A stretch of DNA of 64,000 nucleotides from a virus. Below, piece after piece: positions 15,433 to 64,000 of this stretch (position 1 is the stretch's first letter; every line of letters begins with the position of its first letter). The position numbers and the translations under genes were made by a program. The notes beneath the pieces are model-generated. The model saw only the letters and a program-made list of their open reading frames with translations, was not told where the DNA came from and made no database searches. The stretch is from the IMG/VR virus record IMGVR_UViG_3300045988_160236, positions 95,578-159,577 of that record; one strand, written 5' to 3'.

Positions 15433-15697
15433 TTTTACATGGGCAATAGCCGCCTTTCTTTTTAAGCCCAGTGAGAATATTACCTATAACAGTTTTATCA
15501 TCAGTTAGTTTATCTAATAGAATAGTCATAGTATTTAATTCTCTATAGATAGATGAACATTCTGCTAAACCAAGTCCAGTTTCACTACGTAGTAATTTAA
15601 TAATTTGTACTCTAGTTAGCCCTTCAAACTTGCCATCATCTTTTAATTCTTTATACTTGGCAATACCTTGTTGTCTAAAGTACGGATCTATCCACAT
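15347..15697 (-). CDS. ferredoxin:thioredoxin reductase catalytic-subunit-like Cys-rich protein
   Basis: C-terminal 'CPCKIGKEDENLCPCKEYRDTGHCHC', the CPC…CPC…CHC spacing of the FTR catalytic chain; lies beside the RNR gene. Confidence 0.45.
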   Translation of the reverse strand: MWIDPYFRQQGIAKYKELKDDGKFEGLTRVQIIKLLRSETGLGLAECSSIYRELNTMTILLDKLTDDKTVIGNILTGLKKKGGYCPCKIGKEDENLCPCKEYRDTGHCHCTLYKNA

Positions 15698-17931
15698 TTA
15701 CTAAACCCACAATTTTTACATATAGTACATCCCCCTTCGTATATCAAATGCTCACCACAATCTGGGCAAACTTCATGTGAAGCAACTCCATCAACTATAA
15801 AAGTTTTAATAGCACGCTTTACACCATTCTTCCAAGTATTTAGAGTATCTGACTCAAAATGCATTCCATCAATAATCTTAACTACCTTATCTAATTCAAT
15901 ACCACCTCTTAATAAAGCAGATATTAATTTAGCGTAATTCCAGTATTCTTGATTAAAGATGCGAGACAATCCTCCTAAACGGTTAGTATACCCGTATTTA
16001 TCAGTATATTGAAAATCATATCGTTTGCCTAAAGAGTCTTTTACTTTAATAATTTCTCCCTCAGTGATTGAGGTGGGAATTGGAAAATCTTCTATATTGT
16101 TAATACCAGTAAAAATTTCATAAGGCCTTCCATCAATGAGACCTACAAATGCAATCCAATTCTCAAAACCATTCTTAAATCTAATTAGTTTAGCTTCAAC
16201 AGATTCAGGACGTTTTAGGCATTCTTTAATTACGGGATTCTTTGATAAGACTGCACCCCTTTTGCATCCAGAACGATAAACTGTAACACCCTTTAAACCT
16301 TCCTCCCAAGCTAATCTATAAATAGTTTCTACATCATCAACAGTAGCTGACTCTGGAAGATTTATAGTAGAAGAAATAGAAGCATCAATAAACTCCTGTA
16401 AAGTTGCTTGAACCTTAATTCTTTCTCTATATGGAATCTGTTCTGATGTAACCACATACTCGGGTAAAGCTTCTTCAGAAAATCCTTCATCAATAAGCTT
16501 CTTTATAATTGGAGTATATACTTTATAATACTTTTCCTCATTTACTAAAGATTCAGTCTTACGTGTATAAGAGGTTGCAAAAATTGGTTCACAACCTGTA
16601 GACACTCCTAGCATGGTTGCAATACTGCCAGTTGGAGCACAAGTAAGTAATTGAGAATTGCGTAAACCATACTTACATATAACATCGTGCAAACTTTGGA
16701 AACGCAAATCATTCATATCCCCAGAATCTAAATTCTTAAAGAAAGGAGTTTGTATAACACAATCGCGATTAAATTTAGGATATGGTCCATAGTTAGCAGC
16801 TAACATAGAAGAAGTTTCCAGAGCAGTCATGATTAATTCATGTCCAATTGACTCTAAAACGGATCTAGAAGTAGCACTACCGTATTTGACTCTTAATTTG
16901 ATAAGCATATCAGCCAAACCCATAACACCAAGACCAATTTGTCTCCACTCTGCTACGGAATCCCTTTGTTCTTGTAAAGGATGTAAAGGAAGACCCTCAT
17001 CAAGAACTTCATTCAAAGCAATAACTGCAACTCGAATAGTTTCTCTTAAGGAGATAAGATCAAGTTTTCTTTCTTTTGTAACAAATTCTGCAAGGTTTAT
17101 GCTTCCAAGAAGACAGCTCCCTCCAGCTGGCAGAGGTTCTTCAGCACAGGGATTTACTCCTGCATAAGAAAATTCTTTATTATTTGATAATAAGTTCCAG
17201 CTAGTTATTCTATCCCAAAACAATATACCAGGTTCAGCATAATCCCAGTTCATTTGAGCAAGCTTCCTAAAAATAGGATATGCTTCTACCTCTTTAGTAA
17301 TTGTTTCACCAGTATCAGTTACGAATTTCAATATTAAAGTTTCACCTTTAATAACTGCTTCCATAAATTTGTCACTAACTCTAACAGAGATATTAGCTTT
17401 TGTAACTTTATCTAAGTCAGACTTAATCTCAATAAACTCTTCAAGATCTGGATGATCGCAAGAAATAGAAATCATTAGTGCTCCCCTACGACCACTCTGA
17501 CCGATTAGTCCAGTAATATATGAATAGAAATCCATAAAGCTTACAGCCCCAGAAGTAGTTTTTGCAGCATTATTAACTTTTGCTCCAGAAGGTCTCAAAT
17601 TAGAAATATCAATTCCACAACCTCCCCCGTAGCTGAATGTTCTTGCTAACTTTGTCCCACACTCAAAAATAGATTCAAGATTATCTTCAGGAGGAGCAAC
17701 TACATAACAGTTTGAATATGTTATTTTTCTATTTTTATCAGATAACCCTCTATTAGCAAGGATTCTGCCTCCAAAAATAAATTTTTTAGCTCTAATCTGT
17801 TCTTCTACGATTTCATTACCTCCAGAAACTCTTTTGAACCAATCGTCTAGCGATTCATCTTCAAACCTATATTTATTCTTCCAGATAGTAATAGCTAATT
17901 CGTCATTATTTAACCATTGCTCAACTGTCAT
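15688..17931 (-). CDS. ribonucleotide reductase, class II (NrdJ-like, monomeric, C-terminal zinc ribbon)
   Basis: Active-site loop 'VNPCAEEPLP' (NPC[GA]E), 747 aa, C-terminal 'CPDCGEHLIYEGGCTICKNCGFSKCG'; no glycyl-radical motif. Confidence 0.6.
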   Translation of the reverse strand: MTVEQWLNNDELAITIWKNKYRFEDESLDDWFKRVSGGNEIVEEQIRAKKFIFGGRILANRGLSDKNRKITYSNCYVVAPPEDNLESIFECGTKLARTFSYGGGCGIDISNLRPSGAKVNNAAKTTSGAVSFMDFYSYITGLIGQSGRRGALMISISCDHPDLEEFIEIKSDLDKVTKANISVRVSDKFMEAVIKGETLILKFVTDTGETITKEVEAYPIFRKLAQMNWDYAEPGILFWDRITSWNLLSNNKEFSYAGVNPCAEEPLPAGGSCLLGSINLAEFVTKERKLDLISLRETIRVAVIALNEVLDEGLPLHPLQEQRDSVAEWRQIGLGVMGLADMLIKLRVKYGSATSRSVLESIGHELIMTALETSSMLAANYGPYPKFNRDCVIQTPFFKNLDSGDMNDLRFQSLHDVICKYGLRNSQLLTCAPTGSIATMLGVSTGCEPIFATSYTRKTESLVNEEKYYKVYTPIIKKLIDEGFSEEALPEYVVTSEQIPYRERIKVQATLQEFIDASISSTINLPESATVDDVETIYRLAWEEGLKGVTVYRSGCKRGAVLSKNPVIKECLKRPESVEAKLIRFKNGFENWIAFVGLIDGRPYEIFTGINNIEDFPIPTSITEGEIIKVKDSLGKRYDFQYTDKYGYTNRLGGLSRIFNQEYWNYAKLISALLRGGIELDKVVKIIDGMHFESDTLNTWKNGVKRAIKTFIVDGVASHEVCPDCGEHLIYEGGCTICKNCGFSKCG

Positions 17932-23576: not shown

Positions 23577-24674
23577 TTAAAACAAATTTAATGATTCTTT
23601 TCTTATTTCATTCAATATTGATTTGACTAAATCTGGATCTACTGAATGTGGTAAATCACTGTCTTCAAATTTTTGCTTCAACCCTTTAATTTGATTTCTT
23701 GCTGATTCAAGTAATTCTTCTAAAGATACTTTTCCATGTCTAATAGATAGTAAATATTCAGGGTTCTTAACTCTAACATTAATAGTTTTAAGATCTAAGA
23801 TATCATTAGCACATTGTAATAATCTTATACAATGTAACATATTTTTGCCATCGATCTTTTGTCCATGATTTTGAATATCTACATATCTTTGTGTGTTTCT
23901 TTCTTTCAGCCAAGTTTGGTAGGAATTATAGTCTTTACAATGCTCTCCCCAACCATTCCTATTGTAGTAAAGGTTGCACCTACACATAGGAATTTGCCAT
24001 TCTGGAATCTCTGAAAGTAGTAATTCAACATCATTACAAACTCCTTTATATCCAAAATCTTTCCAATCTTTATATCTAGGATTAGACAAGTCTTTGGTCT
24101 TAGACATTTCTTTAATGTCATCATACCACAAAGCATAAAGATTCTCTGAATCATTGACTTTAGCAAGTCCACAGCAATCCTCATGCATCTGATTACGCTT
24201 TAACCATTCAGCAAGAGGATATGTTTTACAGTTATCAATAACTTTTAGAAAATCAATTGGCCTTTTTCTTTTTACTTTATCAGCCTCCCAATTCATTTTC
24301 TTATTTAGCCCTTTAGCCTTTTCTACTTGTTGGTATGCATAACCAGCAAAACTAAAGTAGCATTGTTTAGTTAGAAATGCACTTCTATGTTTCGATATAA
24401 TATCCCACAAAGGGTGCTTTTCTAGAATACAATCTTCAGGAATATACAAAAGTTCCAACATTGTAGGATTTCCACTACAAAGTAGTTGCAAAAATCTTCT
24501 AACTTCATATAAGCAGGCATCCTTATCCAGGTTAATCTGTTCCTTATATTCCATCCCTAAGACTTCCATAGGATCCTGAAGATATACTCCCTTTGTATCA
24601 ATGTCAGAGTCAGGCGTATTTGTTCCATACGCCTGACTTCCAACAATTGCATTTAACAATATGATTTTATTCAT
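23577..24674 (-). CDS. Pol-beta-superfamily nucleotidyltransferase (minimal NTase / KNTase-like)
   Basis: N-terminal 'GSQAYGTNTPDSDIDTKGV' (GS-x-AYG…SDxD). Confidence 0.5.
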   Translation of the reverse strand: MNKIILLNAIVGSQAYGTNTPDSDIDTKGVYLQDPMEVLGMEYKEQINLDKDACLYEVRRFLQLLCSGNPTMLELLYIPEDCILEKHPLWDIISKHRSAFLTKQCYFSFAGYAYQQVEKAKGLNKKMNWEADKVKRKRPIDFLKVIDNCKTYPLAEWLKRNQMHEDCCGLAKVNDSENLYALWYDDIKEMSKTKDLSNPRYKDWKDFGYKGVCNDVELLLSEIPEWQIPMCRCNLYYNRNGWGEHCKDYNSYQTWLKERNTQRYVDIQNHGQKIDGKNMLHCIRLLQCANDILDLKTINVRVKNPEYLLSIRHGKVSLEELLESARNQIKGLKQKFEDSDLPHSVDPDLVKSILNEIRKESLNLF

Positions 24675-51289: not shown

Positions 51290-52179
51290 TATCGTCGATG
51301 TATGTCAAATATATTAGGTTTTGATTCTGTATTTTCTACAGTTCCTTCTGCAGAAATCTCTTCAATTACTGAAGAGCTACCTTTTAGAGTTTTACCCATA
51401 GCTTCACAAATGGCTTCTACAACTTCATCAGGCTTGCACACAATAAAGTTTTCTCTAAGAATTTCTTTCATTTGTTTAGCTACTACCTCATCATAATGTT
51501 CACTTCCATGTCGAACATGGATATGAAACACATGATACTTTTCACAAGCGAGTTCATAAGCCTCTTGCCAGGTATAATCACGCTCATACTCCATTCCAGT
51601 GAGAGCTGCCAAAGTTCCCCTACTTATTCTTGTTAAAGTAGGCTCATCACCAACTGTAAAGAGGAATCCTTTTTGCTTTCGCTTTTCCCAACTATCAATT
51701 GACGTATGATTTCCTGCAATAATCCAAGGAAGTAAGTAGGATTCTCCACTATTACCTCCACCACGACCCTCCAAATAAATTTTAGAGAGACACTGATTAA
51801 TTGCAACAGTTGAAGATTCGAATTGACCTACCTGACACGGGTAGTAATCACATTCATGATCTCCCACTCCCATAAAAAGAATTTGAGGGTGTTTAACTCC
51901 AATAGAATCAATAATAGAATCCATTAACTTCGGAAGATAATCCCTGATCATCTTATCAGGAATTGAACCCATTGAACCAGTTTCATCTAATGCAATGAAA
52001 ACTGGAAGAGATTCTGGGTGTTCCTCAGAATCTCTAGATTCTCGAATATGTGTCTTACTTTTTGTAAGATCCATTTCTTCGTGTAGAGATCTTTGATGAA
52101 AGATTTCTTCTCTGGATTTTTTAGTATAGCTATCAGCAAAAGCTTTATATGTGTTAGAACTCCATGATCCGCTTCCCAT
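51289..52179 (-). CDS. von Willebrand factor A (vWA) domain protein
   Basis: MIDAS 'IALDETGSMGS'. Confidence 0.5.
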   Translation of the reverse strand: MGSGSWSSNTYKAFADSYTKKSREEIFHQRSLHEEMDLTKSKTHIRESRDSEEHPESLPVFIALDETGSMGSIPDKMIRDYLPKLMDSIIDSIGVKHPQILFMGVGDHECDYYPCQVGQFESSTVAINQCLSKIYLEGRGGGNSGESYLLPWIIAGNHTSIDSWEKRKQKGFLFTVGDEPTLTRISRGTLAALTGMEYERDYTWQEAYELACEKYHVFHIHVRHGSEHYDEVVAKQMKEILRENFIVCKPDEVVEAICEAMGKTLKGSSSVIEEISAEGTVENTESKPNIFDIHRR

Positions 52180-52180
52180 A

Positions 52181-52969
52181 TTAATAATGTATTTTAATTA
52201 CATGATCTTTGTGATACGCAGCTTCATGTAATTTTAAGATTTTTAATTCTTGTTCAGTAAAAGCACATTGTATTCTACCTGTGCAAGTAAGATTTCGCTG
52301 CTTTACAATAAGAGTGTCAAGCTCTTTATATGTAAAACCAAAATTTTCTTCATCAGACTTTCCTGTTAATCCATCTGCAGGAGTCTTACGTATAAGATCA
52401 TATGGGAGCCCCATATAGTCTCCTAAAGAAATAACTTCAGAACATGTTAATTGAGAAATAGGATTAATATCAGATGCCAAATCTCCCCATTTAGTTCCCC
52501 AACCAATAAATAATTCTGAAGCATTACTAGTCCCAGCTACTCGATATCCTACAGACTGAGCTATAGTATATAGAATAGTCATACGAATACGAGGAGGAAC
52601 ATTAGTAAGAGCCTTTTTCGTTACTGGAATGTTTTCTTCATTCCCTTCCACTGTAGTTATTTTCGAAACATCAATTTGATGAATAAGTTCATCAAATGCA
52701 TTCTCTATATTAACAACAGTATAGTTAATACCAAGAAAGTCACATACTGTATAACTATCCTCAATATCAGCTTGCTTACCATTAGGCATTAGCACACCTA
52801 ATACATTTTCCTTACCTATAGAATCTACCAATAATTTGGCCACTACAGTAGAATCCTTTCCTCCAGAAATACCAAGAACATACCCTTTCACATGGGTACG
52901 TTCTTGATAATTCTTAAGAAAGGAAACTATTCCTTCATATACTTCTTTCATTAGAATTTCCCGTTCCAA
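52181..52969 (-). CDS. nadE: NAD+ synthetase (NadE, PP-loop ATPase)
   Basis: PP-loop 'VLGISGGKDSTVVAKL'. Confidence 0.6.
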   Translation of the reverse strand: MEREILMKEVYEGIVSFLKNYQERTHVKGYVLGISGGKDSTVVAKLLVDSIGKENVLGVLMPNGKQADIEDSYTVCDFLGINYTVVNIENAFDELIHQIDVSKITTVEGNEENIPVTKKALTNVPPRIRMTILYTIAQSVGYRVAGTSNASELFIGWGTKWGDLASDINPISQLTCSEVISLGDYMGLPYDLIRKTPADGLTGKSDEENFGFTYKELDTLIVKQRNLTCTGRIQCAFTEQELKILKLHEAAYHKDHVIKIHY

Positions 52970-54435
52970 AGAGTTCTACGAATTTCTGTGAGAGTAGTTT
53001 GCTCCCTCATTTTTCCATCTGAAAAGATAGGACGAAGTAAATTGAAAGGCTCATTATGAGCTTCTTTCAGTGTCATACCTTCATCACAATCAAACTCACC
53101 AGTTACATGGTTGTAGAAGACAGCACAACATCCTTTGTGGGATTTCTTCATTCCTGAATCCGTTTTAGGATCTTTGTAGACCATGATAGATTTAGTTTTT
53201 CCATCAATGGTTTGTTCTACATAGCTGCACTTAATTGCTACATTAAATGTATCGCGAGAGAACATATCCACATTCCCAAACTCATCCATGTAAGAAAGCA
53301 TGGAAAATCCTCCTGCACCAAGTGCAACATTCTCTGCAGAGAATCCTTTATCATACAAAATCTGATAAATCTGTTTTGCACGTAACTGAGTGATGCCATC
53401 ACCATATAAAGCTCGAACATGAGGATCTAAGACTTTATACCCTTTAGAGTTGACAGTACCTCCAAAAGTCTCCCAAAGAGAGAAAACTGTCTCAGTTACA
53501 ATTTCTACAGGATCCCCAGAGTCACCACGAACATACAAAGTGCCGTTTCTACTGAGAATTTCTTCCTTAAGAGATGGAAGAATCTCATCGACAACATTCC
53601 AGTAATCATAGGAATCACTTACCATAGAGAATGATCCATTCGGGTAGACCTCAGTAAGGAGGCGTCGAATCATAACTTTTTCATCCCCATCAATGGCAGC
53701 AGAACTACACATTACGGAGTGCTCAGTAGAAGCCATACCTCCACCTACTACAGACATTGGGGTATGATAATACTTTGAAGCATACATAATGCCAGGAATA
53801 GTCGCAGTCTTATTAAAAGAGAGCAAAAATCCACACGAAGCTTTAATAGCGCCATGAAGTCCAACTAAACTTCTAAATCCGAACTCAGAAATAGCAGAAC
53901 GACCAGAAATATCAGAAGTTTTAGAATAAAAATCATTTACGATACTACGATATTTAGTTACAGCAGTTGCAACACACATTGGATACCAAAGCTCAGAGAG
54001 CATCAAGGTTTCAATGAAATTAGTACACCATGCAAATTCTGGATTAGTATTAGAAATCTCGATACAGGGGACATTCATTCCTACTTTATATCCCTCAGGA
54101 AGTGCCCAGATCTCGATAGGAAGATATCCTAACTCATGAAGCTTTTTAATTTTATCCGAATTAACACGGTCTGCTCCCATAGTAGAAGAAATTACAAATT
54201 CATATTCTGCAATAACTTCTTCTAAAGAACGACTAAAGAAAGTTTCATTCATGTATTCAATCAGATACTCCTCAATAAATGCTTGAATACCAAAAACTAC
54301 TACCTTATCAAATTCAGGAATCCTAGTTTTACGAGGTACATAGTAAGAAACTACCTTAGTGATGCTAGGGTCATATTGCTCTGCATGACATTGTTTATAA
54401 AAATCAGTCAGTAGAGCTCCACAAGGTTTAAACAT
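52951..54435 (-). CDS. nadV: nicotinamide phosphoribosyltransferase (NadV/NAMPT)
   Basis: 494-aa type II PRTase; length and context are typical of phage NadV. Confidence 0.55.
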   Translation of the reverse strand: MFKPCGALLTDFYKQCHAEQYDPSITKVVSYYVPRKTRIPEFDKVVVFGIQAFIEEYLIEYMNETFFSRSLEEVIAEYEFVISSTMGADRVNSDKIKKLHELGYLPIEIWALPEGYKVGMNVPCIEISNTNPEFAWCTNFIETLMLSELWYPMCVATAVTKYRSIVNDFYSKTSDISGRSAISEFGFRSLVGLHGAIKASCGFLLSFNKTATIPGIMYASKYYHTPMSVVGGGMASTEHSVMCSSAAIDGDEKVMIRRLLTEVYPNGSFSMVSDSYDYWNVVDEILPSLKEEILSRNGTLYVRGDSGDPVEIVTETVFSLWETFGGTVNSKGYKVLDPHVRALYGDGITQLRAKQIYQILYDKGFSAENVALGAGGFSMLSYMDEFGNVDMFSRDTFNVAIKCSYVEQTIDGKTKSIMVYKDPKTDSGMKKSHKGCCAVFYNHVTGEFDCDEGMTLKEAHNEPFNLLRPIFSDGKMREQTTLTEIRRTLWNGKF

Positions 54436-54436
54436 A

Positions 54437-55018
54437 TTAATAACGATTAATTATAGTCATTTGTAAACCCTCCATAACATCTAAAGCTTTGTTATGAAGT
54501 TCATTATTATTAGAACGACAGCAGGAAGCATCTATGATGATATCTGCATCAGGGAATGTTTGCTGAAAACTTACAGCACATGAAATAACACAAAGATTAG
54601 TTACTACACCAACCAAAGTAATTTCTGTAATGCAATCAGCGATCTCGAATAAATATTCTCCATCACCTGTCTTAGCATCATTAAACTCATCCTGGATAAA
54701 TCCAAACCTATTTAGTTTATCCATTACATAGCAGGAACGAAGATAAGGCTTAAACTCCTTAATAAGCTTATGACCTTCAGTTCCACAAACACAATGAAGA
54801 ATTGGAAGATTTCTACCTTCACGAGTCATAGCATAGCCAAATCCCCTAGTATCACTATGCTCATAATGAGTATCCCGAGTAAAAAGAACAGCATCATCTG
54901 CTGTTATATACTCTTTAACTAATCTCTCTATAGGAGAAATTATTTCTTCAGCACCAGGAACCGTTAATGCACCTCTGATGAAGTCTTCTTGCATATCAAC
55001 TACTACAAGTAATCGCAT
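54437..55018 (-). CDS. isochorismatase-family hydrolase (nicotinamidase PncA-like)
   Basis: 'LLVVVDMQEDF' isochorismatase N-terminal motif; catalytic Cys context '…VGVVTNLCVISCA'. Confidence 0.5.
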   Translation of the reverse strand: MRLLVVVDMQEDFIRGALTVPGAEEIISPIERLVKEYITADDAVLFTRDTHYEHSDTRGFGYAMTREGRNLPILHCVCGTEGHKLIKEFKPYLRSCYVMDKLNRFGFIQDEFNDAKTGDGEYLFEIADCITEITLVGVVTNLCVISCAVSFQQTFPDADIIIDASCCRSNNNELHNKALDVMEGLQMTIINRY

Positions 55019-55488: not shown

Positions 55489-57180
55489 TTACATCTTAAT
55501 GAGAGACAGAATCTCTTGATTCATAGCCTCATCAAACAGATCCCGTGTAGTCTGTACCTTTCCATTTAAGAAAGATACAATCTGTGCTGAATATCCAGAC
55601 ATGTAGTAGACATTCTTGACATCACCATAAGTTTGGAATGGAGTGCGATTCTGCGCATTATCTCCGTAGTAATCATTTCTCAAATTCCAAAGGCAAATGA
55701 CAAAATTGTCAATATACTCTTTAGAAAATCCTGCAGCTGTCAATGTATCATGGACTCTTTCAACTGAAGTCTTATTCAGACTTGAAGCATCAAACTCACA
55801 ATCACTGATACAAAGAATTCCTTTAGGAAATTCCTCTTCTGGAACACCTTCAAGCTTCAACTGAGCAAAGAGGTTAATAACACCCTCAAAGTTTGTACTT
55901 CCATAGTACCCCGAATGGTCATTAAACCATTTCTCCAGAGGAGTTTCTCCTTTCCACTCATGCATCATAGCTTTTGAGTTAAACTCAATCCATGCATTTT
56001 GGAATCTCCCTCTTAAGAAATAAGAGAAATACAGAGCAATTGCCTTACCTACATTGTAGCAAGACATGGAAGTTCCAGTTGCTTCTGCACCCATTGAACC
56101 AGAAGTATCACGTACTACGATAAGATCTGTAGTATTGCCCTCTTCCTTACACTTATTAACAAGGGTCATAAATTGCTTGTTAATAGTATCTTTGATATGC
56201 TGCTCTATATTACGAGGAACAGTGTTACAAATAGGTTTAAAGAGCTCATGTACGAAACCTGTGTACTTCACCTCCTTTGTCTCTGGAGCTCCTATCCATT
56301 CCTGATACTTCTCTTTGAGATTATGATTCTCTAAGAACTTGGAATGTACAAGAAGGTTTAAGGCACGACCATGAATCTTATCAAAGTCAATCTCCGTATA
56401 TCGTTGCTTTGAAATAAGCTGTTGCCAGCTATGTGCTGTTCCTGCAGCTTTCATCCTTGCATAAGAACGATATACTTGATACTTTTCAGCATCTGTCTTT
56501 GCTCCTGACGCGCCGTAAAGTTCTGAACACAGCCATTTTGCAATCATACAATTTGCTTGTGCCTCTACTGTAGTACACTTGGAACGTGCCTTGATCTGAG
56601 GAAGATACTTACGAGTGAGATTCGTTTGAGAATCAGAGCCAAGACCTGCAGTAATCAGATCTGCAAAACGACGCCAATCCAGAACTCGGTGTTCCCAGCC
56701 GTTATAAACTAAGTCATAACGAAGCATAACGAAGAGATCTTTCCAAGAACCCACCAAGGGAATCAGCCAAGCATTCTTCCAGAATACTTCTTTATCTTTG
56801 GTATGTAGCCAGATGAGACGCATAATACCTTCATGACGAAGTTCAGAACCCTTTTGTGCTTCTTTGGTACCATACTTTTTATCATTAATCTTACGACAAA
56901 TCATTCGCAAGAAAAAGATAAATTTAACAGTATCTTCTTTATTTTCTGCCCAGAGAATTTCACAGTCTTTTGCAATTTCTGCAAATGGGCGGATCTCTCT
57001 GTACTTAGATGTACTGCCAAACTGGTCAACGAAGGGATCCCCTGTACTGGAATAGGCTTTGCCACCGTTACCTGTAGTGGTTTCTGCTGCAGTTTTTAAT
57101 CCTGCCTGAATAAAGGCTGATTTAGATGCCGATTTACTGTTATCAACAGCAAATAATGTTTTCTTTTTTGCTTCAAACAT
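55489..57180 (-). CDS. vWA-domain protein with Ro60-like (TROVE + vWA) architecture
   Basis: 563 aa; MIDAS 'VVRDTSGSMG' at about residue 350, preceded by about 340 aa of helical-repeat N-terminal domain. This is the Ro60/Rsr domain order. Confidence 0.35.
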   Translation of the reverse strand: MFEAKKKTLFAVDNSKSASKSAFIQAGLKTAAETTTGNGGKAYSSTGDPFVDQFGSTSKYREIRPFAEIAKDCEILWAENKEDTVKFIFFLRMICRKINDKKYGTKEAQKGSELRHEGIMRLIWLHTKDKEVFWKNAWLIPLVGSWKDLFVMLRYDLVYNGWEHRVLDWRRFADLITAGLGSDSQTNLTRKYLPQIKARSKCTTVEAQANCMIAKWLCSELYGASGAKTDAEKYQVYRSYARMKAAGTAHSWQQLISKQRYTEIDFDKIHGRALNLLVHSKFLENHNLKEKYQEWIGAPETKEVKYTGFVHELFKPICNTVPRNIEQHIKDTINKQFMTLVNKCKEEGNTTDLIVVRDTSGSMGAEATGTSMSCYNVGKAIALYFSYFLRGRFQNAWIEFNSKAMMHEWKGETPLEKWFNDHSGYYGSTNFEGVINLFAQLKLEGVPEEEFPKGILCISDCEFDASSLNKTSVERVHDTLTAAGFSKEYIDNFVICLWNLRNDYYGDNAQNRTPFQTYGDVKNVYYMSGYSAQIVSFLNGKVQTTRDLFDEAMNQEILSLIKM

Positions 57181-57237: not shown

Positions 57238-57708
57238 TTATAAAGATCCTCTGTAAAAGGTAAGAGTCTTACCAAGTAGATTTTCTCCCCAATTTGATTG
57301 GTTTTGAAGTGCATGATCTTGATCATAGCCTATACCCCAGATTCTATCAAAGGGAGATGCTTCAACAAAGAATTTCCCGTCTAATGCTGGGTCTTTAAGT
57401 TTATCCATTAAGTCTTTATTTTGGCTAAACTTACCTTCCAAGGCAAGATACATTTTCTGAATCTTAACCTCATTCCAGGATTTCTCATCAAAGTTTCTAA
57501 CCTCCCTACCAAGGTTTTTAGCTTCCTTTGGAGTCTCTGCTAATAGAATCTTCTCTGCTGTTTCTACATCACCAAAATGTAAAGCTTTAAGATACATAAA
57601 AAGCTGTTCAGATGATTTAAAAACTTTAGAGCCAAATACTATTCTACAAGGATGAAAGTTACTTAACCAACCTCCCCAGAAGAATATAAAATTATCTACA
57701 ATTTTCAT
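57238..57708 (-). CDS. NADAR (YbiA-like) domain protein
   Basis: 'FIFFWGGWLSNF…SEQLFMYLKA…'; start trimmed to the internal Met because the ORF's 5' end overlaps tRNA-Tyr. Confidence 0.5.
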   Translation of the reverse strand: MKIVDNFIFFWGGWLSNFHPCRIVFGSKVFKSSEQLFMYLKALHFGDVETAEKILLAETPKEAKNLGREVRNFDEKSWNEVKIQKMYLALEGKFSQNKDLMDKLKDPALDGKFFVEASPFDRIWGIGYDQDHALQNQSNWGENLLGKTLTFYRGSL

Positions 57709-57723
57709 GTCAATATAAATTAG

Positions 57724-57809
57724 TCCCGCCGTGAGGATTCGAACCTCATGAGTTTCTGATGTACAGCATTTACAGTGCTGCGCCACTCCACCATCGTAGC
57801 CGCGTCGGG
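57724..57809 (-). tRNA. tRNA-Tyr (anticodon GTA), type II
   Basis: T-arm TGAGG-TTCGAAT-CCTCA; perfect anticodon arm CAGCA-CTGTAAA-TGCTG; long variable arm; acceptor CCCGACG/CGGCGGG (one A·G mismatch), A73. Confidence 0.55.
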
Positions 57810-59963: not shown

Positions 59964-60051
59964 ATTTTGTAATAATTAATTTCAAAGAAAGGCTACGCTA
60001 TCATCCAAAAAATATACATTAAGAAGATAATTGCTGTATGTAGCCTATTAG

Positions 60052-60124
60052 TGGGACTGGAACGAGTCGAACGTTCACCTTTGGATTTTCAGTCCAACGA
60101 GCGCACCACGCACACCGCAGTCCC
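60052..60124 (-). tRNA. tRNA-Phe (anticodon GAA)
   Basis: Perfect acceptor GGGACTG/CAGTCCC, A73; anticodon arm TTGGA-CTGAAAA-TCCAA; T-arm GAACG-TTCGACT-CGTTC. Confidence 0.65.
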
Positions 60125-60269
60125 AACAAAAAATTCCAGTATTTCTACTGGAATTGAGTGCATCGCAGGGCTCTTCAGCCCCGATACTTTTTTGATTTAA
60201 CGTCGGATTCTTAAAGTCTTAACCGATTACAGTACTTTCTTATATAGCTCTCAATCTATAAGAAATTGC

Positions 60270-60342
60270 GGGAAACAATAGGGTTCGAACCTACAATCAC
60301 TAGCAACACACCTAGTTGCTTTACCAATTAAGCTATGTCCCC
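60270..60342 (-). tRNA. tRNA with apparent 8-nt anticodon loop (GTGTGTTG); identity uncertain
   Basis: Acceptor GGGGACA/TGTTTCC; U8; D-stem GCTT/AAGC with AATTGGTA loop; stem ACTAG/CTAGT closes an 8-nt loop; 4-nt variable; T-arm GTAGG-TTCGAAC-CCTAT. Confidence 0.4.
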
Positions 60343-60517
60343 GTAATAATAGATGCTCTACATACCATCTCGTAGAATTACAGCTTTCTGAAGTTTTACA
60401 TGTGCATGGCTGGGGAACTACGCCTTATTGCTCTTCATTAAAGGAGCGACCTTTAACTTGGCCAATGATTTTTTGCAAAACAAATCATAAAGGTTCGTAC
60501 ATCTATTATATTTAAAG

Positions 60518-60591
60518 TGGACACATGTGGGGATTCGAACCCCTCTATTTCCTTGCAAAGGAAATGTGCTCGCCTTTACACTACATGGCCC
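60518..60591 (-). tRNA. tRNA-like (anticodon loop TTTGCAA, Ala-TGC type) with imperfect acceptor stem; possible pseudogene
   Basis: Anticodon arm TTTCC-TTTGCAA-GGAAA perfect; D-stem GTGT/GCAC; T-arm (A)GGGG-TTCGAAT-CCCC(A); 5' GGCCATG pairs only partly with 3' CATGTGT. Confidence 0.35.
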
Positions 60592-60777
60592 AAAATACTT
60601 AAAGTTTAATACGAAATTGCCTTATTTTATTACATATTTTACAACGCTGTATATAAACTTTTTTAACCTTAACTGGACGACTTTGATGATCATCTTCAAA
60701 TACTCTTGTTAAGCTTTCTTCAACTGTCTCCCAATTATGAACATGAAATTTAGCTTTTAACCATTCTTTTATAATCT

Positions 60778-61116
60778 TTAACATAATTTAGAAAATTGTT
60801 TTAAATAAAATCCAGAATCTGGAAGCATAGAAGTATTTATTTTATTTATGCTAATTTCTTTTCCACTGAGTATTTTTGAAGATCTAGACTTAAGTTTAGC
60901 AATAAAATAATTAGATTTATTTGTTAAAACGCTTAATAAATCTATTTCCCCACATTTAAGTTGTTCTAAATCCTGATTTTCAATTTTTACAAATAAGTAG
61001 TCTTGTCCATTAGACTGTAGAACACCAATATATTTAATATTATTCTTATCTTTTGCTAAAATAATTTGTGGAATATCATAGAAACCTAAAATTTCGATTA
61101 ATTTTAACTGTAACAT
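60778..61116 (-). CDS. hypothetical protein (about 112 aa, start trimmed to an internal Met to avoid tRNA overlap)
   Basis: ORF 60778..61272 overlaps the tRNA at 61132-61213. Confidence 0.25.
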   Translation of the reverse strand: MLQLKLIEILGFYDIPQIILAKDKNNIKYIGVLQSNGQDYLFVKIENQDLEQLKCGEIDLLSVLTNKSNYFIAKLKSRSSKILSGKEISINKINTSMLPDSGFYLKQFSKLC

Positions 61117-61131
61117 AATATAAATTTTTAG

Positions 61132-61213
61132 AGCCCCCTGTCGGACTCGAACCGACGCGTTCAAATGAAGACGGATTACAAAACCGTTGCAGTCGCCGCT
61201 GTGCCAAGGAGGC
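61132..61213 (-). tRNA. type II (long-variable-arm) tRNA with anticodon TGT (would read ACA); Ser/Tyr-like D-loop
   Basis: Acceptor GCCTCCT/AGGGGGC; D region TGGCACAGCGGCGACTGC; anticodon arm ACGG(T)-TTTGTAA-(T)CCGT; variable hairpin TTC-ATTT-GAA; T-arm GTCGG-TTCGAGT-CCGAC. Confidence 0.45.
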
Positions 61214-61438
61214 TTACAAACACTATCGTAGTTTACACGTCTGATTTTTATTGCCACAGAAACTCCATACAAATGATCAATTTATATGCTAAGAGTTATT
61301 ACGCCGCTAAAATTGCTGAGTGAAACTAACTTGTTTCTTTATTGTCTATCAGCATCGACTTTACCCTAACATTTAGGGAGTGCTCATTACCTTGTACTTC
61401 GGTAGTTTGTTCGAATAGGCTTTGAGCTAGCCTATAAA

Positions 61439-62172
61439 CTATTTATTTTTAGAGTATCGATATCGTCTAGTACTATTTTTATTCCTTGATCCAAAATGTT
61501 CAGTCATTGCATGATGATTTGGACACAAAACCTGGAGATTTTCTTCTTTATTGTTAGTTGCATCTCCATCAATATGATGTATCTGAAGAATGGATAAATT
61601 AGTATAAGGATTAATGAAATTACATCCACATCCTGGAATTTCACAGGTATAATTAGCCTTCTCTAATAAATATCGTCGAATATGTGCAGATAATCCATCT
61701 TCACCTGCCATTCCTAATTCTTTACCTTCTTTTCAGCGTTTGATAAATTCCTTGTAGGCATATTCAGCTTGGCATTTGTGATTACAATATTGATTTCTTG
61801 CAGGTACTACATTTCCACAATTTACACAGATAGAAGTAGCACCACGAACATACTTACCACTTGACTTAGCGCCTCTTTTTAAATTTATATATGTAGCACT
61901 GCATGAATGGGAACAAAAGTCATTGGCTCTCTTACTTCATGAAATTGCACTTCCGCATTGTTTACATAGTTTAGGATTCTTTTCATAACTATCTTTTGTA
62001 AGTATGTTAGTAACAGGAATCTCCACTTTATTTTTAACTGCCCATTCTTTTAATTTATTTCTATTAGAAATATTATCATGAATTTCTAACTTTTTACAAA
62101 TTTCAAACAAACTTTTACTGTTATTTCACACAGTTCTGATTATATCATCTGAAAGTTCTTTAAAACGTTTCA
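61439..62172 (-). CDS. HNH homing endonuclease; three in-frame TGA codons
   Basis: C-terminal 'HHIDGDATNNKEENLQVLCPNHHA' HNH motif; N-terminal CxxC pairs; continuous frame from ATG 62172 through TGAs to the TAA at 61439. Confidence 0.65.
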
Positions 62173-62207
62173 TTAATTTAGTTTATTAATAATTATTAGT
62201 TACAATT

Positions 62208-62280
62208 GAGAGGTATAAGAGATTCAAACTCTCCCCTTGTGATTGGAAGTCACATATGCTATCACTAACACCAATACCTC
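62208..62280 (-). tRNA. tRNA-Gly (anticodon TCC)
   Basis: Perfect acceptor GAGGTAT/ATACCTC; perfect anticodon arm TGTGA-CTTCCAA-TCACA; T-arm GAGAG-TTTGAAT-CTCTT. Confidence 0.65.
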
Positions 62281-62493
62281 ATAAAAGGTCTCTATAAAGC
62301 TCCGTAGATTAAAAGTCTATTGCTAAATAAAGGTTGCTGTAAGAGACCTTGTAAAACACAACTGTGAAATTTTCGCTTTGAATCATTTCTGATCTCTGGA
62401 CTAATACTGATAGATTAGAGTGCCTTCATATCAGAGCCTGCAATGTCCATACCGCACTCTCGGCTTTACATTTCACTACAAATCCTAGTTGTG

Positions 62494-62979
62494 TTATTTC
62501 TGCTCTACTATCCAAGCATTCAATCCTCTGGAAGAAGGCCTTTCATTATCAAGTAAATTCTTCAGATCTATCTTACCAATATCTGAGAATTTAATATTGT
62601 AGTAGCATCCAGTAACAGGCATGATACTTGCTACATTACTTGTATCAACATGAGCAACGATACAAGTAATATCGTGTGCAAATGCCAAACCTAACTCCCA
62701 GGCAGTACCACTGTCAGAATAATGACCATGATAGATTGCAAGTACACAATCTGCATTTCTAATCTGTTCTACATCATAGTCAAACACTTCACGTGCCCAC
62801 TCTTCATTAGTTAACTTTTCACCATTTTCAATGAAGTGTTCCATAGGAACTATAACTTCATATCCTTGATTACGCAGAATGAGTGCTGCAGTTTCTACAA
62901 GATGCCGTTCTTTTTCATTGAAAAACGGACCTGCAAGATAAATCTTTATCATTTTATTATGCTTTACATACTTTTTCAA
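62494..62979 (-). CDS. nucleoside 2-deoxyribosyltransferase-family protein
   Basis: N-terminal 'KIYLAGPFFNEKER' NDT-family signature; 161 aa. Confidence 0.5.
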   Translation of the reverse strand: MKKYVKHNKMIKIYLAGPFFNEKERHLVETAALILRNQGYEVIVPMEHFIENGEKLTNEEWAREVFDYDVEQIRNADCVLAIYHGHYSDSGTAWELGLAFAHDITCIVAHVDTSNVASIMPVTGCYYNIKFSDIGKIDLKNLLDNERPSSRGLNAWIVEQK

Positions 62980-62992
62980 AAGTATAATCTTC

Positions 62993-63395
62993 TCAATTAA
63001 TTCTCTTATATTGATTTTTACCTACGTTAACGTAAGGGTGTCTTATTGTAATCATAGTTTGTCCCTCAACAACTTCGATAGGTAATAAAAATAATACATT
63101 ACTTTGTAGGTTATAACACGCAAAATAATCTATTTCTTCATGAGTATATTTGTGCTTCTCCCCAGAGTTCCTGTGCATTGTTGAACTAACCAGGCTAATA
63201 ACAAATTTCTCTGAATCAATTCACTCTTCAAAGGTTTTTACCTGAACTTTATTTAATTTTCCATTAAAGTCAGCAATTAAATCTGACTTTTCATTATCTC
63301 CAAATGGAATATATACAGGTATTTGAAGTTCAACAAATTTAGCAAGGGCTTTCGCCTCACCTATATTTCCCAATTGTTTAGTAGTCATTTTTATT
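62993..63395 (-). CDS. PD-(D/E)XK nuclease (Hjc/restriction-endonuclease-like fold); in-frame TGA at about 63221-63223
   Basis: 'GNIGEAKALAKFVELQIPVYIPFGDNEKSDLIADFNGKLNKVQVKT' (E…PxGD…DLIA…VQVK) in frame with ORF 62993..63178. Confidence 0.5.
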
Positions 63396-63404
63396 CTTTT
63401 TAAG

Positions 63405-63477
63405 CGGGAGCACCAAGATTCGAACTTGGAATCTATCGGTTAACAGCCGATTGCGTTAGCCATTGCGCCATACTCCC
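63405..63477 (-). tRNA. tRNA-Asn (anticodon GTT)
   Basis: Acceptor GGGAGTA/TGCTCCC, G73; D-stem GCGC/(A)CGC, AATGGCTA loop; perfect anticodon arm ATCGG-CTGTTAA-CCGAT; T-arm CCAAG-TTCGAAT-CTTGG. Confidence 0.65.
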
Positions 63478-63544
63478 AAAGTGGGCTAGGTTACTCTAAT
63501 TTACATCCTACCATTAGACGACTATAGTACTTCTCAGCCCTGAA

Positions 63545-63590
63545 GTTTCCTATAACTGGGACTCGAACCCAGATCGCTGTTCAACAAAAT
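63545..63590 (-). pseudogene. tRNA 3'-half remnant (T-arm CTGGG-TTCGAGT-CCCAG only)
   Basis: Canonical T-arm, but no matching acceptor 5' strand or anticodon arm found within 120 nt. Confidence 0.3.
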
Positions 63591-63665
63591 ACAATTCAGT
63601 AGAAGAAGCTTGCTGAAGTAACCTTGTGTTTACAAAAATAATAACTTTATTTTACATATGCAAGA

Positions 63666-64000
63666 TTAATCATCCATGCCGTGATCCTGCCGATATCATT
63701 TAAGAATAGTTCTGCCACTAACTCCAAACTTCTTACCTAGTGCTGTTTTAGAATTAGTCTTTAGAAGTTCCTCTAATTCTTCTTTAGAAGGTCGTACAGG
63801 ATTCTTTAAAGATTTACGTAAACAAGTTATACATAATCCAGTCATAGAAGCGGAATTTAGAACTTTACCACATTCTGAACATGCATAGGTTTTCTTATTG
63901 ATTTGCCGATTTTTGCTTTTATAGTTATCTGTTTTAGCATGACAATTAGGACAAAGAAGCATTAAATTAGAATCCACATTGTTATCTGGATTTCCATCAA
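63666..64000 (-). CDS. HNH endonuclease, 3' part (gene continues beyond the window); in-frame TGA at 63696-63698
   Basis: 'LLCPNCHAKTDNYKSKN' HNH motif; the frame continues upstream past 64000 ('HHIDGNPDNN…'); true stop is TAA at 63666. Confidence 0.55.

Follow-up and report, generated by a model that had tools for sequence, protein, structure and literature searches.

Which amino acid does a transfer RNA (tRNA) carry when its body is of one class and its anticodon belongs to another? By the textbook rule, the class II tRNAs of bacteria are those for leucine (Leu), serine (Ser), tyrosine (Tyr) and selenocysteine (Sec) only. The question is raised by a gene at 61132..61213 on the minus strand of a 64,000-nucleotide (nt) stretch of viral DNA (positions 95,578 to 159,577 of the IMG/VR record IMGVR_UViG_3300045988_160236), hereafter the window. 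It specifies an 82-nt tRNA, counted from position 1 to the discriminator U73, which combines a long variable arm with the anticodon UGU, the complement of the threonine (Thr) codon ACA. A sequence-only reading, in which the minus-strand location was not stated, had described it as a second type II tRNA with a Ser/Tyr-like D-loop and had suggested that this phage carries a set of chimeric tRNAs. We consider it probable, at roughly 0.8, that the gene encodes a functional phage tRNA which accepts Thr and decodes ACA on a class II scaffold.

Architecture and conservation of the tRNA

ARAGORN, the check proposed at the outset, calls tRNA-Thr(tgt) at 61131..61213 on the minus strand, and the Rfam model RF00005 matches 61132..61213 (-) with 46.8 bits (gathering score 29, E = 2.9e-7) over its full length (model positions 1-71); an insertion of 11 nt falls in the variable region. 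The 5' half of the tRNA reads GCCUCCU-UG-GCA(C)AGCGGCGA(C)UGC-A-ACGGU-UUUGUAA-UCCGU and the 3' half C UUC AUUU GAA CGC-GUCGG-UUCGAGU-CCGAC-AGGGGGC-U, and no CCA is encoded. The 5' strand of the acceptor stem, GCCUCCU (61207..61213), pairs with AGGGGGC (61133..61139) and includes G1-C72, C2-G71 and a U4·G69 pair, at which most relatives have U4-A69. The D arm, GCA(C)AGCGGCGA(C)UGC (61189..61204), has a stem of 3 base pairs (bp), a C13·C22 mismatch and a loop in class II style. In the anticodon arm, ACGGU-UUUGUAA-UCCGU (61171..61187), a U31·U39 mismatch leaves four pairs, and the anticodon itself lies at 61178..61180 (aca on the plus strand). The 14-nt variable region, C-UUC-AUUU-GAA-CGC (61157..61170), opens with 1 nt, followed by a 3-bp stem around a 4-nt loop, and closes with 3 nt; its final C, N48, is paired with G15. 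The T arm, GUCGG-UUCGAGU-CCGAC (61140..61156), was assigned from the sequence parse and Rfam, and the discriminator U73, at 61132..61132, from the sequence.

The molecule is thus of the 7/5 configuration (7-bp acceptor stem, 5-bp T stem) and of class II, its variable region being longer than 10 nt with a stem-loop and its 3-bp D stem being closed by a non-Watson-Crick 13·22 opposition under an extended D loop. The elements previously noted in the sequence (82 nt, AGCGG D-loop, UUUGUAA loop, U·U mismatch, 14-nt variable arm with a TTC/GAA hairpin) were each found where they had been placed, the hairpin being a UUC/GAA stem of 3 bp with an AUUU loop, and the ARAGORN call, the Rfam match and our parse all support a type II body with a Ser/Tyr-like D arm and an anticodon that reads ACA. 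We rejected alternative folds that would present a Ser, Leu or Tyr anticodon: there is only one register of stems and loops, and the family described below keeps it. The minimum free energy (MFE) fold of the single sequence contains no cloverleaf (z = -0.63), which is usual for tRNAs and does not count against a gene.

The search for homologues in related phages showed the tRNA to be anything but private to this virus. By an exact-pattern scan of viral contigs, the same gene is found in 15 related contigs of 35-178 kb (L001-L015), and 14 of the 15 copies differ from that of the window at no more than two positions. The remaining copy, in L002, is divergent (acceptor GCUGGUG/CACCAGC, D stem CCC/GGG, arm stem GAG/CUC) and is still paired throughout. 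A looser pattern (TTTGTAANCC, 13-30 nt, GGTTCRANYCC), followed by ARAGORN, yielded at least 120 loci in viral contigs; among the matches listed there were at least 113 tRNA(UGU) genes of 79-90 nt, with about 70 distinct sequences; the contigs measure 4-578 kb and represent at least 64 sample ids. An 87-nt version is present in ~100 T5-like phages in GenBank (Demerecviridae; phages of Salmonella, Escherichia, Klebsiella, Citrobacter and Shigella), and phages of Pseudomonas, Erwinia and Aeromonas carry more distant long-arm versions. Annotated copies are labelled tRNA-Thr. The tRNA is thus nothing special to this phage. In the tRNA clusters of the closest relatives, the long-arm tRNA-Thr(UGU) is the sole tRNA-Thr.

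The 87-nt tRNA-Thr(UGU) of T5-like phages, annotated as reading ACA, is ~60-65% identical to the window copy and shares with it G1-C72, C2-G71, the 3-bp D stem and the UUUGUAA loop; its arm has 1 nt, then 3 bp closed by a GUAA loop, then 4 nt. It departs from the window copy in its A73, its encoded CCA, an anticodon stem paired throughout and a stronger stem in the variable arm. The hosts differ as well: T5-like phages infect enterobacteria, whereas the window belongs to a human-gut phage of about 175 kb. No match to the long-arm tRNA of phage 5, a Salmonella phage, was found in 5,426 complete E. coli genomes. A narrow-pattern scan of representative genomes of 185,579 prokaryotic species returned no full-length copy, a result that shows the absence of this sub-family only. 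What that scan did return was a single metagenome-assembled genome of the Balneolales (L016), in which a tRNA-Thr(UGU) of normal form precedes two tandem copies of its 3' half (L016:3774-4210); in both, a small hairpin has been inserted behind the anticodon stem, and the tandem copies look like scars of the integration of an element into a tRNA gene. The family is thus already in public databases as tRNA-Thr, with a functional note on one member. Full-text literature searches found no discussion of the architecture of long-arm phage tRNA-Thr, and this architecture, the breadth of the family and its parallel in other tRNA specificities appear to be undescribed so far.

The cloverleaf and the variable arm are under selection. 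In a set of 40 diverse family members, tested against 500 column shuffles, RNAalifold recovered the cloverleaf together with the variable-arm helix. Standard pairs made up 97.8% of the canonical structure, as against 68.3% after shuffling (0/500 shuffles reached the observed value), and slid registers were at most 47% paired. All three arm pairs are formed in 40/40 sequences, with both sides changed in 16, 21 and 16 of them, respectively. Across the family the variable region spans 12-17 nt and comprises 1 nt, a 3-bp stem, a tetraloop (GAAA, n=18; GUAA, n=6; GCAA, n=6) and then 3-4 unpaired nt; its mean MFE is -1.98 kcal/mol, compared with -0.39 +/- 0.09 in shuffles. Tertiary positions also covary: C9 goes with U13·U22 (30 sequences) and G9 with G13·A22 (15) or C13·C22 (13), and the 15-48 pair is G-C in 58 and A-U in 12. 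With G9, C13·C22, G15-C48 and its arm in the same register, the window copy is consistent with this pattern. The features used in translation are kept too (7/5 acceptor/T domain, T loop, G18G19, U33, A37 and the acceptor pairs read by threonyl-tRNA synthetase, ThrRS). As for the U·U mismatch in the anticodon stem, it is real yet no defect: positions 31·39 do not pair in 25/71 long-arm tRNA-Thr (~35% of the family) and in 10/35 short-arm phage tRNA-Thr, compared with 0-9% in tRNA-Ser, tRNA-Leu and tRNA-Tyr, and 4-bp anticodon stems are common in bacterial tRNAs generally (PMC13092985).

Amino-acid identity

Studies in E. coli and T. thermophilus place the identity elements of tRNA-Thr at G1-C72, C2-G71, G35 and U36, and all of them are present in the window copy. 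We compared the long-arm UGU genes (71 distinct sequences among the matches listed) with all ARAGORN tRNAs of the same 128 phage loci, 1,239 genes in total. In the long-arm group, G1-C72 and C2-G71 are each found in 70/71, the 3-70 pair is C-G or U-A, and N73 is U in 60 and A in 11. Short-arm tRNA-Thr with the anticodons CGU, GGU or UGU, whose variable regions measure 4-6 nt, have G1-C72 without exception, C2-G71 in ~94%, C-G or U-A at 3-70, and U or A at position 73. The tRNA-Ser of these loci look different: mostly G-C at 1-72, G-C at 2-71, A-U at 3-70, G73, and a variable region of 16-21 nt in which a stem of 5-6 bp is followed by 1 nt; in the 54 sequences of the GCU, GGA and UGA groups, G73 and G2-C71 each occur in 48. 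In tRNA-Tyr, 1-72 is mostly G-C, 2-71 and 3-70 are G-C, N73 is A, and a 3-bp arm stem is followed by 3 nt. In tRNA-Leu, 1-72 is G-C or G·U, 2-71 mostly C-G and 3-70 C-G or G-C, and the arm stem is followed by 2 nt; A73 is found in all long-arm and nearly all short-arm members.

Against this background the window copy, with U73, C2-G71 and a 3-bp arm followed by 3 unpaired nt, lacks the marks of tRNA-Ser, and with U73 and UGU it lacks those of tRNA-Tyr (A73 and GUA, with U35) and of tRNA-Leu (A73). It shares with bacterial tRNA-Tyr the long arm, the 3-bp D stem with its 13·22 mismatch, the AGCGG/AGUGG D loop and the run of 3 bp and then 3 unpaired nt in the arm, and differs from it in having UGU instead of GUA, U73 instead of A73 and C2-G71 instead of G2-C71. 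In the family, acceptor positions 3-7 are free and 1-72 and 2-71 are fixed, which is a signature of selection by ThrRS. The divergent L002 copy has exactly the same acceptor stem and discriminator (GCUGGUG...CACCAGC-U) as the ordinary bacterial tRNA-Thr(UGU) of the Balneolales in L016. The identity of tRNA-Thr lies in acceptor-stem pairs and anticodon, and N73 carries little weight (PMC9976931). Other long-arm tRNAs of the phages likewise keep the marks of their cognate amino acids: G73 in 10/10 for Asn, U73 in 5/5 for Cys, and C1-G72 with A73 in 5/5 for Pro. Judged by these sequence marks, the body is built like that of tRNA-Tyr, the D arm is Ser- or Tyr-like, and both of the ends that ThrRS would read are those of a tRNA-Thr. 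The epithet "chimeric" is therefore apt for the architecture and fails for an identity mismatched to the anticodon, the acceptor end agreeing with tRNA-Thr.

A route to such a product can be sketched. The gene would be co-transcribed with the minus-strand genes around it, and cellular enzymes would trim the transcript and add CCA, a step needed because none is encoded. On a scaffold with a 3-bp D stem, a 13·22 mismatch and a short arm hairpin laid out as in bacterial tRNA-Tyr, the ThrRS of the host would then attach Thr. The charged tRNA would read ACA, and possibly further ACN codons through wobble at U34, and would supply ACA decoding during infection. ACA is the second Thr codon of the window genes (32% of Thr codons; 17.3 per 1000 codons). 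Its meaning was checked in the large subunit of ribonucleotide reductase, aligned with 49 homologues of 35-59% identity that came from an exhaustive profile search; a word-index protein search had returned only relatives of at least 95% identity, uninformative on conservation. At the 11 ACA sites, the homologues have Thr in 44% and Ser in 10%, and at one site Thr in 96%; AGA sites, by comparison, have Arg in 43%. ACA sites thus align with Thr in distant homologues, as the proposed check of ACA codons had asked, and this small sample of one enzyme shows no sign of ACA reassignment.

Several observations weigh against a Thr-accepting tRNA. The codon comparison is limited to one protein and 11 sites. 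A long variable arm with G73 or U73 has been taken by the Söll laboratory as Ser identity in allo-tRNAs (PMC5389517), so U73 alone does not exclude seryl-tRNA synthetase (SerRS). A GenBank note on Salmonella phage 5 describes its long-arm tRNA-Thr, when given a CUA anticodon, as an effective amber suppressor, and the same replacement in the syntenic short-arm tRNA-Thr of T5 (75 nt, between tRNA-Gly and promoter P11) gives no suppressor. Since the phage 5 derivative suppresses, the long-arm scaffold can be charged without a Thr anticodon, which keeps Ser, Tyr and Leu alive as rival amino acids. The derivative, with A73, a Tyr-type arm, U35 and A36, may simply resemble the supF tRNA-Tyr suppressor, and in that case little follows from it for the native UGU species or for the window's U73 form. 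Finally, the variable-arm stem of the window copy is the weakest of the family (three A-U/G-C pairs, MFE 0 when folded alone), and the copy has one G·U pair and two mismatches besides.

Because SerRS identifies its substrates by the long arm and G73 (PMC7609411) and ignores the anticodon, it might make of this tRNA a mistranslating chimera, through which ACA would partly be read as Ser. The long arm, the Ser/Tyr-like D arm, the nearly invariant C11-G24 of the family and the anticodon-independent charging implied by the phage 5 suppressor all speak for it, as does the compatibility of U73 claimed for allo-tRNAs. On the other hand, the family has C2-G71 in 70/71 where tRNA-Ser has G2-C71, and G73 in none; its arm of 3 bp and then 3-4 unpaired nt contrasts with the 5-6 bp and then 1 of tRNA-Ser in the same phages; a strict C2-G71 next to free positions 3-7 makes sense only under selection by ThrRS; and ACA sites align with Thr, not Ser. 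It also counts against this alternative that ThrRS edits Ser-tRNA-Thr (see PMC11415595), and we regard Ser charging as quite unlikely. Charging by tyrosyl- or leucyl-tRNA synthetase through the Tyr-type arm, with ACA read as Tyr or Leu, is the least plausible reading of all. It would build on an arm composed, like that of the tRNA-Tyr of the same loci, of 1 nt, 3 bp and 3-4 nt, on the D arm of L035, almost identical to that of tRNA-Tyr, on A73 in 11/71 members, and on the precedent of the nematode nev-tRNAs, which have a class II body with an anticodon outside Leu, Ser and Tyr (for Gly or Ile; PMC3333845). It has to contend with U73 in the window copy and in 60/71, where all tRNA-Tyr of the loci have A73, with an anticodon that lacks the U35 and A36 of tRNA-Tyr, and with ACA sites that are not aligned with Tyr or Leu. 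The nev-tRNA report links these eukaryotic molecules to an alternative genetic code for leucine, their identity following the body (PMC3333845); in the viral tRNA of the window, identity would follow the anticodon.

Two further rivals leave the amino acid aside. The RNA could act mainly outside translation, as a decoy or competitive inhibitor of defence nucleases that target tRNAs, or as some other regulatory tRNA-like RNA. Over-expressed viral tRNAs possibly inhibit the nuclease AriB by competition (Belukhina et al., PMC12409363), the cleavage motifs of the host type are kept in the window tRNA, and the tRNA regions of T5-like phages give rise to several stable tRNA-like RNAs of unknown function. 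Since all features used in translation are conserved, the gene is the only tRNA-Thr in the clusters of the closest relatives, and the phage 5 homologue works as a suppressor on the ribosome, we judge a mainly non-translational role to be unlikely. Decay into a non-functional gene through a variable-loop insertion and mismatches is very improbable. It might be suspected from C13·C22, U31·U39, U4·G69 and the weak arm of the window copy, and several neighbouring tRNAs of the window do look degenerate; set against this, some 70 divergent sequences share these features and show compensatory and tertiary covariation, the 15 related genomes carry the gene in nearly unchanged form, a 13·22 mismatch is the rule in class II, and a 31·39 mismatch is common in phage tRNA-Thr. 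A functional tRNA-Thr on a class II scaffold thus agrees best with what was found.

The tRNA is also distinct from the allo-tRNAs described by Mukai et al. in 2017, with which it has in common the long variable arm; those have many anticodons, and some are found in phages (PMC5389517). Allo-tRNAs have an 8/4 or 9/3 acceptor/T configuration, a Sec-like D arm and Ser or Ala identity (PMC5389517), whereas the window tRNA is 7/5 with a Thr-type acceptor stem, and an allo-tRNA identity was rejected on account of its 7-bp acceptor stem and 5-bp T stem.

The variable arm and tRNA-cleaving defences

What might a long arm do for a tRNA-Thr? One possibility, our preferred hypothesis for the class II body although we put it forward tentatively and think it less likely than not, is that a variable arm and a class II D arm on class I tRNAs serve phages as a structural counter-defence against tRNA nucleases. 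The arm would emerge at position 44, beside positions 40-43 of the anticodon stem, and could there block Toprim-type and other nucleases (PARIS AriB, P2 Old and relatives) with the identity elements for the synthetase left intact. A phage tRNA could in this way keep a host-like anticodon stem and survive. Two routes would lead to the same end: changing the cut site, or shielding it by an arm.

The sites cut by the two Toprim nucleases in E. coli are CNG motifs and UAAUC, and the E. coli thrU anticodon arm reads ACUGA-CUUGUAA-UCAGU. P2 Old, whose cleavage sites are paired CNG motifs of the anticodon stem, acts chiefly on host tRNA-Thr(UGU), and phage tRNA-Thr(UGU) with changed CNG motifs and a shortened anticodon stem rescue ACA decoding (PMC12445682). 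Three comparisons are in keeping with shielding. The short-arm tRNA-Thr of T5 (GUUGC/GCAUC) and T4 (CCUCA/UGAGG) have altered anticodon stems, and the long-arm stem of phage 5, CCUGA/UCAGG, is that of thrU at 28-31 and 39-42, with both nuclease sites kept. T5, with a short arm and a scrambled anticodon stem, and phage 5, with a long arm and a thrU-like stem, occupy the same syntenic locus. The three targets of AriB are Thr(UGU), Lys(UUU) and Asn(GUU) (PMC12409363), all of which have long-arm forms in relatives of the window phage. Besides Thr(UGU), the long-arm tRNAs of these relatives include Lys(UUU), Asn(GUU), Pro(UGG) and His(GUG), and the last two are not AriB targets. In the 128 loci, long arms were seen in Ile(UAU) (14/40), Asn(GUU) (13/59), Lys(UUU) (9/41), Pro(UGG) (8/51) and Cys(GCA) (7/42), and in none of the Glu, Val, Asp, Thr(GGU), Thr(CGU) and Arg(ACG) genes; the loci having been chosen for long-arm Thr(UGU), these counts are unbiased only among the other tRNAs. 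The variable arm is unmentioned in two studies of these nucleases (PMC12409363, PMC12445682) and in an eLife article that deals with phage tRNAs and anticodon nucleases.

In the window tRNA itself the paired CNG is kept (C28-G29-G30 / C40-C41-G42), and the 3' strand, UAAUC|C, has the form of E. coli tRNA-Asn, a secondary target of AriB; both points weigh against evasion. The published rescue tRNA-Thr(UGU) (T4, T5, phage 21, Thr6), presumed to keep ACA decoding going (PMC12445682, PMC12409363), resemble it in being phage-encoded and in having the same anticodon and a shortened 4-bp anticodon stem. In the window tRNA it is U31·U39 that leaves four pairs, which fits the shortened-stem theme; in the published rescue tRNAs the unpaired position is 27·43 (PMC12445682). 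Neither the CNG motifs nor the UAAUC|A site has been altered in the way of those tRNAs: the T5 and T4 rescuers are short-arm with an altered stem, whereas the window tRNA retains its CNG motifs and has the variable arm in addition. The Thr6 rescue tRNA is described as differing from thrU at only 12 bases. That the T5 tRNA-Thr of the PARIS paper might be of the long-arm type was ruled out by the T5 record, a 75-nt short-arm gene, and the PARIS rescue experiments therefore do not test the long-arm form.

Elsewhere in the window, an RNA-repair set (6224..9010 and 23577..24674, both on the minus strand) includes a polynucleotide kinase-phosphatase (PF25109, 5e-45), whose gene adjoins that of an RNA ligase (phrog_968, 7e-52), and an RlaP nucleotidyltransferase (PF10127, 4e-22); the set suggests that the phage faces tRNA-cleaving defences. 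A block of genes for nicotinamide adenine dinucleotide (NAD) and nucleotide metabolism occupies 49398..55018, 57238..57711 and 62494..62979, all on the minus strand. Its translations resemble a NadV-like nicotinamide phosphoribosyltransferase, an NAD synthetase, a phosphoribosyl pyrophosphate synthase, a nicotinamidase and an adenylosuccinate synthase, and Pfam adds a NADAR domain protein and a nucleoside 2-deoxyribosyltransferase. This block may counter NAD-depleting defences.

Wider meaning and neighbouring genes

The gene would itself be ordinary in function; what it leads to is a family that forms a neglected exception to the textbook rule. A large phage family breaks that rule for Thr yet keeps the Thr identity marks, and related phages break it for Lys, Asn, Arg, Pro, Cys and Ile too. 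Members have stood in GenBank as plain "tRNA-Thr" for ~20 years. Should the arm protect against nucleases, it would represent a new kind of immune evasion; should it not, the phages would still offer natural class II scaffolds with class I identities, orthogonal-looking and useful for tRNA engineering. The family also cautions that the shape of a tRNA is, by itself, no ground for assuming mistranslation.

Thirteen tRNA genes, that of the long-arm tRNA-Thr among them, follow one another on the minus strand, mixed with small open reading frames (ORFs) and HNH-type endonuclease genes, in a phage genome of ~32% G+C whose genes are all on one strand. Small HNH-type endonuclease genes at 61439..61711 (-) and 63696..63977 (-) sit among the tRNA genes as in the tRNA region of T5, and such enzymes could drive the exchange of tRNA genes between phages. 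The ORF at 60778..61272, which runs across the tRNA in the mechanical list, is an artefact, the real gene starting with an ATG at 61116, shortly after the tRNA. No significant structure was seen in the 225-nt spacer that precedes the tRNA (z = -1.68), and an Rfam match to EGFOA-assoc-1 within it, at 20.9 bits where the gathering score is 224.5, was dismissed as noise. In a promoter and terminator scan around the gene, promoters did not exceed shuffle expectation. BLAST of window positions 60000-64000 against GenBank phages gave no match, and the phage therefore has no sequenced isolate relative. The ORF at 55489..57180 was considered as a Ro/TROVE protein and ruled out, Pfam assigning it to DUF7788 and DUF2828.

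The second type II tRNA named in the sequence-only reading is indeed present: a class II tRNA-Arg(UCU) of 86 nt at 47006..47091 (-), with A73 and G1·U72, was found by both ARAGORN and Rfam (52.0 bits). Its variable region (1 nt, 4-bp stem, 4-nt loop, 3 nt) follows the same Tyr-type layout, and L001 and L014 have a 73-nt short-arm tRNA-Arg(UCU) in place of the long-arm form. A tRNA-Ser(GCU) at 45361..45446 (-) has an apparent 8-bp acceptor stem (GGAGAGUA/UGCUCUCC) and a 4-bp T stem (GUGG/CCAC), and appears to be one of the 8/4, allo-tRNA-like phage tRNA-Ser of Mukai et al.; this form would explain why its best match is the tRNA-Sec model (41.9 bits, gathering 47). At 60270..60342 (-) there is a tRNA with an 8-nt anticodon loop, GUGUGUUG, which ARAGORN did not assign. 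It is conserved in relatives (L005:4474-4546; L008:3458-3530, with the loop GUGCGUUG in L008), and to judge by its G3·U70 and G4·U69 pairs it could be a substrate of alanyl-tRNA synthetase. The 87-nt tRNA-Tyr(GUA) at 57723..57809 (-) has C1-G72, an archaeal and eukaryal mark of Tyr, and an A5·G68 mismatch; it is an ARAGORN call that is not among the Rfam matches at E<=1, and a mechanical ORF with a NADAR domain overlaps it. The acceptor end of tRNA-Ala(UGC) at 60518..60589 (-) is poorly paired, with Rfam covering model positions 4-67 only, and tRNA-Gly(UCC) at 62209..62280 (-) was found by Rfam (49.7 bits) and missed by ARAGORN.

Long-arm genes for Lys(UUU), Asn(GUU), Pro(UGG), His(GUG), Cys(GCA), Met(CAU) and Ile(UAU) occur in L004, L008, L009-L011, L013 and many other loci, and the long-arm tRNAs of these phage clusters have kept their cognate discriminators. 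In long-arm tRNA-Ile(UAU), arms of 21-27 nt carry a recurring hairpin loop, CUAGAUUAG, that contains GAU, the standard Ile anticodon, and the loop may be an anticodon-loop mimic. The reverse case is common in the 128 loci: tRNAs with Leu anticodons (CAA, UAA, UAG) and A73 that have a variable loop of only 5 nt. There is no tRNA with a CUA anticodon in the window; close relatives have one of 81 nt, labelled "Pyl" by ARAGORN (L009:6627-6707, L010:5773-5853, L011:7323-7403), which is a candidate amber suppressor. In the ribonucleotide reductase gene of the window (15688..17931, minus strand), codon 700 is TGG (Trp); the same codon is TGA in many independent assemblies of relatives (L131-L135, whose ribonucleotide reductase gene is 96% identical), and the database protein has W. 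Either this TGA is read through or recoded in part of the lineage, or the last 47 residues are dispensable.

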